Part shown: positions 56,308 to 56,341 of the stretch, piece by piece
How the letters are laid out: each line of letters opens with the position of its first letter
Position numbering within the stretch: position 1 is the stretch's first letter
NCBI RefSeq assembly: GCF_013167455.1
Contig: NZ_CP038328.1
Length of the DNA: 64,000 bases
Source of the DNA: Escherichia coli O157:H7
Lineage (GTDB): Bacteria > Pseudomonadota > Gammaproteobacteria > Enterobacterales > Enterobacteriaceae
Reading direction: 5' to 3' (one strand)
Program-made: the position numbers and the translations under genes
Notes under the pieces: model-generated
Databases searched by the model: none
Told to the model about the DNA's origin: nothing
What the model saw: only the letters and a program-made list of their open reading frames with translations

Positions 56308-56341
56308 TTCGACCAGTCAGCATATTTGCTGACTGGTCGAA
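56308..56341. other. Perfect 15-bp-stem hairpin immediately downstream of elaD
   Basis: ttcgaccagtcagca-tatt-tgctgactggtcgaa, 17 nt beyond the elaD stop; no strong U-tract. Confidence 0.6.

Follow-up and report, generated by a model that had tools for sequence, protein, structure and literature searches.

Introduction

In E. coli, stable stem-loops without U-rich tails set and protect the 3' ends of transcripts that are Rho-dependent, and a mild excess of C over G has been reported downstream of such ends (Dar and Sorek 2018, PMC6061677). Hairpin-encoding elements between convergent genes have been described as sites of pausing and collision (bioRxiv 10.1101/2022.10.23.513370); the bidirectional terminators of convergent gene pairs reported by Ju et al. 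(2019) are, as represented in that preprint, Rho-independent. Two further classes of element are relevant here: canonical intrinsic terminators, in which a stable stem-loop directly downstream of coding regions is followed by a U-tract of 7-8 nt, and REP/BIME palindromes, which can lie between convergent genes and could protect mRNA 3' ends.

Here we describe a perfect palindrome downstream of elaD, which encodes a deubiquitinase of the ElaD/SseL family, in 64,000 nucleotides of E. coli O157:H7 DNA (the window), a stretch with 100% identity to E. coli O157:H7 genomes. An earlier note on this DNA had proposed three readings of the palindrome: a terminator that elaD once had in common with a convergent gene since lost, a protein-binding palindrome or a deletion-junction scar. 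From our analysis the palindrome is probably a transcript-end stem-loop without a U-tract that marks the 3' end of the elaD mRNA and shields it. A literature search found no paper on this particular hairpin. The hairpin itself is thus previously undescribed in the literature found, and the type of element to which it would belong is already known rather than being of a new kind.

The protective 3' stem-loops of Rho-dependent transcripts (PMC6061677) are closest to what we find. As in these, a stable stem-loop is located past an open reading frame and has neither a U-rich tail nor an upstream A-tract, the sequence downstream is mildly richer in C than in G, and K-12 data point to Rho-sensitive read-through at the elaD 3' end. 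The hairpin differs from them in having no mapped steady-state 3' end, in a protective effect that is putative, and in its stem of 15-16 perfect pairs, which is unusually regular. With the bidirectional terminators of Ju et al. (2019), to the extent that these are presented in bioRxiv 10.1101/2022.10.23.513370, it shares a spacer hairpin that does not resemble an intrinsic terminator and, in K-12-type genomes, a position centred between yfbK and elaD. Unlike those elements, it has lost one of its two partner genes in O157, where a collision could arise only through residual transcription from a relict yfbK promoter. In addition, the Rho independence ascribed to them contrasts with the Rho sensitivity seen here, and both yfbK and elaD are weakly expressed. 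The stable stem-loop directly downstream of coding regions is shared with canonical intrinsic terminators, but the U-tract is missing on the elaD strand and interrupted on the other, in contrast to the terminator at 38973-39012 of the window. REP/BIME elements come to mind as well, since the hairpin is a palindrome in the spacer of a convergent pair with the potential to shield the 3' ends of mRNA; however, it is single-copy, shows no REP consensus and carries no repeat annotation in MG1655.

Results

Structure and stability of the palindrome

The sequence at 56308-56341, TTCGACCAGTCAGCA-TATT-TGCTGACTGGTCGAA, forms a perfect inverted repeat with arms complementary at 15/15 positions and a loop of 4 nt, as read from the sequence and recovered by a local repeat search (Table 1). 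This bears out the 15-bp repeat described in the earlier note. Because the palindrome is perfect in DNA, an equally stable RNA hairpin is expected from either strand. Indeed, the 34-mer was predicted to fold at -27.3 kcal/mol (z-score -11.1) as + strand RNA and at -26.4 kcal/mol (z-score -11.5) as - strand RNA, and 0 of 200 dinucleotide shuffles folded as well. The very stable hairpin that had been anticipated is thus predicted for RNA of both strands. In + strand RNA the wobble pair G56307:U56342 adds a 16th pair. The result is a stable, G+C-containing stem-loop with 15-16 pairs, 8 of which are G-C.

Table 1. Features of the palindrome and its surroundings in the O157:H7 window
Feature	Position	Strand	Basis or remark
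Diverged remnant of the yfbK start region	56110-56225	+	aligned to 2780-2900 of the K-12 locus (L001)
Filler of 22 nt at the yfbK deletion junction (true deletion scar)	56226-56247		replaces 2901-4458 of L001 (1,558 bp)
Last 40 nt of yfbK including the TGA stop (56285-56287), sole remnant of the yfbK 3' end	56248-56287	+	blastn against 4459-4498 of L001; K-12 annotation
48-nt block, yfbK tail	56253-56300		identical to O157 in 763/4,203 records (18%)
Spacer between relict yfbK stop and hairpin, 20 nt	56288-56307		elaD-sense RNA tail there is CAUAGUUUGCUAAAAAGUCA, not U-rich
48-nt block, hairpin	56301-56348		identical to O157 in 3,200/4,200 records (76%)
5' arm of the inverted repeat, TTCGACCAGTCAGCA	56308-56322		sequence read, repeat search
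Hairpin loop of 4 nt, TATT (+ strand), AAUA (- strand RNA)	56323-56326		sequence read, folding
3' arm of the inverted repeat, TGCTGACTGGTCGAA	56327-56341		sequence read, repeat search
Spacer between hairpin and elaD stop, 16 nt	56342-56357		also the interrupted, weak U-tail UUAAUUAAC of + strand transcripts
48-nt block, elaD 3' end	56349-56396		identical to O157 in 298/4,201 records (7%)
elaD, ElaD/SseL-family deubiquitinase, 407 aa	56358-57581	-	~35% GC

In our own scan for close inverted repeats, the 15 bp of 56308-56341 were the longest perfect repeat in the 64 kb, with the runner-up measuring 12-13 bp; as a control, 50 composition-preserving block shuffles yielded longest repeats of 8-11 bp. 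The arm sequence occurs only at these two sites within the window, even when up to 2 mismatches are allowed. The palindrome is also the most stable 40-nt local fold of the window on both strands, exceeding the terminator at 38973-39012 and several REP elements. It is far beyond chance expectation.

The element at 38973-39012, which has A- and U-tracts and is a canonical bidirectional terminator, is among the other very stable local folds of the window, as are REP-like palindromes (GCCTGATGCGACGC…) located at 13345-13658, 479-518 and 35125-35164. The REP clusters proper of the window are located at ~13345-13658.

The hairpin belongs to the yfbK-elaD spacer and is older than the loss of yfbK

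The gene order in the window is nuoN (+), yfbM (-), the remainder of a frameshifted yfbL (-), the hairpin, elaD (-), rbn (-), elaA, elaB and menF. The elaD stop codon TAA occupies 56360-56358 on the - strand, and the hairpin starts 16 nt beyond it. In K-12, an intact yfbK (+ in the orientation of the window) converges on elaD. The stop-to-stop spacer of 70 bp consists of 20 nt, the 34-nt hairpin, identical to that of O157, and 16 nt, placing the hairpin almost exactly in mid-spacer, 20 nt past the yfbK TGA and 16 nt ahead of the elaD TAA. Its coordinates in NC_000913.3 (MG1655) are 2,383,941-2,383,974, and neither a repeat nor an RNA feature is annotated there.

In pairwise BLAST and in local alignments, 56248-57700 matched K-12 without a break in collinearity, beginning with the final 40 nt of yfbK and continuing across elaD, at 93.7% identity. 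Upstream of this segment O157 carries a deletion, in which 1,558 bp of yfbK (2901-4458 of the K-12 locus) are replaced by the 22 nt of filler. A location between two convergent units is thus true of K-12-type genomes, while in the O157 window yfbK is reduced to 5' and 3' stubs. Because yfbK is deleted, the hairpin is in O157 now just an elaD 3'-UTR hairpin, 16 nt past the stop. A 144-nt query comprising junction and hairpin was fully covered in 2,580 of 5,426 complete E. coli genomes, including B-strain derivatives; these genomes have retained the hairpin without yfbK. In ~1,620 further genomes the query matched from 56248 onward only, overlapping an annotated yfbK. The yfbK deletion is old and widespread, being present in about half of the complete E. 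coli genomes, and the hairpin is older than the deletion. Judging from anatomy and ancestry, we are close to certain that the palindrome is the native stem-loop of the spacer between convergent yfbK (+) and elaD (-), retained after yfbK was lost.

yfbL (window 55329-56225) is a pseudogene, lacking 326 bp internally relative to K-12 (2046-2371 of the K-12 locus) and annotated as frameshifted. Identity to K-12 is only 81% over the adjoining 515 bp (55711-56225), which comprise the 5' part of yfbL, the spacer from yfbL to yfbK and the start of yfbK, compared to 94-96% in the flanks; this allele is unusually divergent for E. coli. The filler reads AGATACGCTGGAAATACCCGAA-G, and nothing in K-12 yfbK corresponds to it. 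An arginine-rich ORF of 41 codons with a TTG start (56145-56270, +) extends across the deletion junction in a frame that differs from that of yfbK. Read by eye, this ORF frame appears to begin at an ATG farther upstream in one related locus (L004), and a 'hypothetical protein' is annotated at the position of the ORF in at least one genome. The diverged remnant of the yfbK start region (Table 1) could still be the source of a short + strand transcript that runs into the hairpin.

Terminator features and transcript data

A consensus terminator scan called the hairpin on neither strand, consistent with the earlier remark that a convincing U-tract is lacking. On the - strand, in elaD direction, the tail is CAUAGUUUG and contains no U-tract; the fuller elaD-sense RNA past the stem is CAUAGUUUGCUAAAA. 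The + strand tail UUAAUUAAC has 4 U in 8 positions (1, 2, 5 and 6) and is interrupted. Thus, neither strand carries the U-rich tract of ~7-8 nt directly past the stem that characterizes intrinsic terminators. In many lineages the + strand tail is UUGAUUAAC or UUGACUAAC, and A56344, in the spacer between hairpin and elaD stop, is G in many lineages. A hairpin-plus-tail score came to ~+1 on the + strand and to -30 on the - strand; note that it is uncalibrated and behaved poorly on a control, with the canonical-looking terminator at 57729-57752 scoring below zero (-3), and that it was used for strand ranking only.

Two further hairpins in the vicinity have terminator-like features. A small hairpin at 56270-56285, ACTGAC-ATCA-GTCAGT, with GATGACTTTTT after it (tail in K-12, GACTGTTT), overlaps the stop codon of the yfbK relict. 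It is one of 2 terminator-like calls that a scan of 54600-58000 returned, both on the + strand, and has the motif CAGTCAG/CTGACTG in common with the large hairpin. The second hairpin, at 57729-57752, is composed of AACAGGGC-AAGTTTC-GCCCTGTT followed by TTTAATAA on the + strand; it is located in the rbn-elaD spacer, antisense to both genes, and would halt transcripts antisense to elaD ahead of rbn. Near its K-12 counterpart, Rho-termination regions have been mapped at MG1655 2,382,642(+) and 2,382,764(-) (Adams et al., PMC7815308).

The curated Term-seq tables for K-12, covering three growth conditions, list neither a 3' end under the labels elaD or yfbK nor one at 23839xx or 23840xx (Adams et al., PMC7815308). 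The comparison with mapped 3' ends suggested in the earlier note hence came out negative for the hairpin in K-12. Because the locus is weakly expressed, this absence is weak negative evidence. The hairpin locus also had no entry in two further published data sets of transcript 3' ends.

Direct RNA-seq in 800-nt windows identified a K-12 Rho termination region at 2,383,800(+), inside elaD and 141 nt before the hairpin (PMC7815308, supplementary file 2). Reads across this position dropped from 165 to 21 without bicyclomycin and from 264 to 122 with bicyclomycin, corresponding to a Rho score of 3.6 (p = 6e-8) at the resolution of the 800-nt windows. At the second K-12 region, 2,382,764(-), which is antisense to elaD, the drop was from 274 to 21 reads in untreated cells and from 503 to 139 under bicyclomycin. 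Rho thus probably contributes to ending elaD-sense transcription in K-12 within ~800 nt of the elaD 3' end. In O157, the elaD-sense RNA downstream of the hairpin has a C/G ratio of 1.3-1.9 over 50-200 nt. Antisense RNA across elaD in K-12 is represented by the 274 - strand reads counted upstream of 2,382,764. It is thus not evident that the hairpin tightly blocks transcription in yfbK direction, although these antisense reads could also stem from internal promoters.

These data bear on the possibility that the hairpin is an intrinsic, Rho-independent terminator, acting chiefly on the + strand in yfbK direction, with the strength of the stem offsetting the interrupted U-tail. The stem is certainly very stable, the U residues of the + strand tail begin at its first position, the hairpin is found 20 nt past the yfbK stop in K-12, and the uncalibrated score of the + strand is near that of 57729-57752. 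Nevertheless, we consider such a terminator unlikely: the consensus scan made no call, the tails of other lineages are no better, elaD is left with no tail whatever, and K-12 has antisense RNA across elaD and no called Term-seq 3' end. In O157 its sole remaining task would be to prevent short transcripts that start at the relict yfbK promoter from entering elaD in antisense orientation. The proposal of a terminator common to elaD and a lost convergent gene stands with respect to geometry, as the K-12 hairpin is centred between the two stops and yfbK is deleted in O157; termination as such is putative, there being no U-tract and no Term-seq end called in K-12.

Conservation of the hairpin

Between K-12 and O157, elaD differs by 6.3% while the hairpin is identical. 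Among database records, the 48-nt block containing the hairpin was identical to O157 in 76%, compared to 7% for the adjacent block at the elaD 3' end and 18% for the yfbK tail (Table 1). The hairpin is better conserved than its flanks, which suggests constraint, with record counts that are phylogenetically non-independent. In a set of eleven loci, several of which were picked because they are variable, we found three stem variants, all single transitions (C56314T, G56328A and C56333T). Each of these creates a G:U pair in the RNA of one strand and a mismatch in that of the other. No compensatory change or covariation in the stem was detected among the eleven loci, and 12 of the 15 pairs were invariant. 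Because covariation is absent, the comparative data cannot assign the constraint to one strand, or to the RNA as opposed to the DNA level.

elaD is annotated as frameshifted in five of eleven related loci (L009, L010, L011, L013 and L014); the hairpin is perfect in four of these five.

The palindrome might also have no function at all, being either a quasi-palindrome perfected by a template switch or a passenger that hitchhiked with an acquired low-GC elaD segment, and having persisted for want of any harm and owing to the young age of E. coli lineages. Consistent with this, compensatory changes are missing, transitions in a single arm are tolerated in several lineages, no 3' end is mapped, and the hairpin is found beside frameshifted elaD copies. 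We nonetheless regard absence of function as improbable, to about the same degree as an intrinsic terminator. The difference between the hairpin and its flanks in the fraction of records identical to O157 argues against it, as do the persistence of a perfect palindrome across elaD alleles that diverge by 6% and its position midway between convergent stops, which is as expected of a transcript-end element.

Possible regulatory and noncoding-RNA functions

We see only a slight chance that the palindrome is a sequence-specific cis element controlling the effector gene elaD, as a target of a DNA- or RNA-binding regulator or as an RNase III site, or that in the ~2,580 genomes with yfbK deleted the relict promoter and the hairpin together give rise to a stable noncoding RNA of ~200-250 nt that has gained a function. 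If either were true, the stronger conservation of the hairpin relative to its flanks would reflect that role.

A DNA operator, in which a dimeric protein would bind the 34-bp palindrome and regulate elaD or yfbK or act as a roadblock, corresponds to the protein-binding palindrome of the earlier note and appears slightly less probable still. The dyad symmetry is perfect, and this low-GC locus may undergo silencing by nucleoid proteins. In addition, the arms contain CTGGTC half-sites, which we take to be GntR/FadR-like. However, these half-sites face outward (GACCAG-N16-CTGGTC), in contrast to the LldR box TGGTC-N-GACCA, and 30 perfectly symmetric bp far exceed the needs of known operators. The palindrome is positioned at the 3' ends of both genes rather than at a promoter. 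The sole regulator peak reported nearby is that of LldR in gSELEX, listed for elaD/yfbK/yfbL at 2,383,166 (PMC10272880), with different proposed boxes. Judging from its fadL row, the coordinates of that table appear to be older and ~1,978 bp below those of NC_000913.3, so that the peak would convert to ~2,385,144 in NC_000913.3. This position would be inside yfbK, ~1.2 kb from the hairpin and in DNA that is deleted in O157, and we rejected an LldR operator on these grounds.

Distribution and copy number

Of 5,426 complete E. coli genomes, 4,199 contain the 48-nt hairpin block, always at a single locus; the two 'places' per genome at which it matched reflect the palindrome matching itself on both strands. 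The search for the palindrome elsewhere, as called for in the earlier note, thus revealed one locus per genome rather than a generic multi-locus repeat. The two outcomes that the note had jointly set against its own reading came apart in this way: a mapped 3' end is indeed missing from the K-12 tables, but the palindrome does not recur as a generic repeat.

The block is missing from ~1,225 genomes and does not occur in those of the elaD-less, B2 type. An example is UPEC132 (locus L003, 7955-8074), which has no elaD and a different yfbK C-terminus (…LIGLAKDLDNSQN). The yfbK-rbn spacer of this strain contains an unrelated, imperfect hairpin, CTGTTTGCC…GGCAAACAG. By sequence, then, a potential hairpin is present in the convergent-gene spacer of both haplotypes, with and without elaD. 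In a published survey elaD was absent from phylogroup B2 (PMC12575377). K-12 and the elaD-less type of UPEC132 begin to diverge within roughly the final 10 codons of yfbK, ~45 bp short of the hairpin; the two rejoin at the rbn stop. Because these breakpoints flank the hairpin, it is part of a low-GC (~35%), elaD-specific segment of ~1.5 kb. Direct repeats flanking the borders of this segment were not seen.

In strain MB06021 (locus L012, 2552-2640), the TTAG that lies 8 nt upstream of the expected hairpin start carries an IS5 insertion, and the hairpin is gone along with elaD and the whole stretch as far as ompC, indicating a strain-specific IS5-mediated rearrangement.

Outside E. coli, the palindrome pattern ACCAGTCAGCANNNNTGCTGAYTGGT had no exact match in the representative genomes of 100,044 species, and a peptide-pattern scan for ElaD in the species representatives was likewise without match. 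A protein search with ElaD returned only E. coli among the 120 matches listed, at least 91% identical. There was no palindrome match in phages, and six 'plasmid' matches proved to be chromosomes or large chromosomal fragments filed as plasmids; an origin from phage or plasmid was rejected accordingly. The best Rfam 15 match (tsr26) reached 29 bits, compared to the 141 bits that its gathering score requires. Every match was a sub-threshold chance match to a hairpin, and membership in an Rfam structured RNA family was discarded. A generic repeat or REP element is excluded by the single locus per genome, the uniqueness within the window and the absence of a REP motif at the palindrome. An integron attC site was also rejected, as the core sites RYYYAAC/GTTRRRY are absent from both strands of 56260-56400 and the palindrome is perfect, in contrast to the imperfect attC.

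That the palindrome forms the terminus or the recombination site of a mobile element by which elaD arrived, whether an attC-like site, a hairpin of IS200/IS605 or REP type, or the end of a MITE, has thereby become highly improbable and is largely refuted. The location of the hairpin within the elaD-specific segment, the different hairpin in the elaD-less B2 genome (L003) and the ~35% GC content of elaD would be in line with such an origin. Opposed to it are the single copy in every genome, the lack of attC core sites, of a REP motif and of direct repeats at the segment borders, the absence of phage matches together with the chromosomal nature of the plasmid matches, and the failure to find the palindrome in any other species representative.

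Finally, the deletion-junction scar of the earlier note can be dismissed with near certainty: although the hairpin adjoins the degenerate region, the junction (56226-56247) lies 61 bp upstream of it, and the identical hairpin is present in K-12 and in the ~1,620 genomes without the deletion.

Discussion

The structure, position, ancestry, single copy and conservation of the hairpin lead us to infer an action at the RNA level, as a transcript-end stem-loop for elaD that does without a U-tract. In favor of this reading are a folding energy of about -27 kcal/mol on both strands, the location 16 nt past the elaD stop, the mid-spacer position in K-12 and the nearby Rho region. It has to be set against the lack of a Term-seq 3' end at MG1655 2,383,941-2,383,974, the antisense RNA over elaD, the lack of covariation, and several genomes in which a perfect hairpin is found beside a frameshifted elaD.

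In the mechanism we propose, RNA polymerase would read through the hairpin or pause at it, and Rho would terminate transcription downstream, on untranslated RNA with an excess of C over G. 3'-to-5' exonucleases (PNPase, RNase II) would then trim the transcript to the base of the stem, thereby defining and stabilizing the 3' end of the elaD mRNA. In genomes that carry yfbK, the same element might serve both converging transcripts and curb antisense read-through, possibly also as a site of pausing or collision. In O157, elaD would be the remaining client, and the hairpin may in addition cap short transcripts from the relict yfbK promoter.

The significance of these findings is small outside annotation. 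For O157, the anatomy of the degenerate locus is settled: yfbK was lost by a 1.56-kb deletion and yfbL is a pseudogene, with the hairpin and elaD intact. elaD, which encodes a deubiquitinase effector, gains a defined candidate 3'-UTR element. Moreover, the combination of a symmetric hairpin lacking U-tracts with natural genomes in which only one partner gene remains could be used to test exonuclease-barrier, Rho-dependent and collision models against each other.
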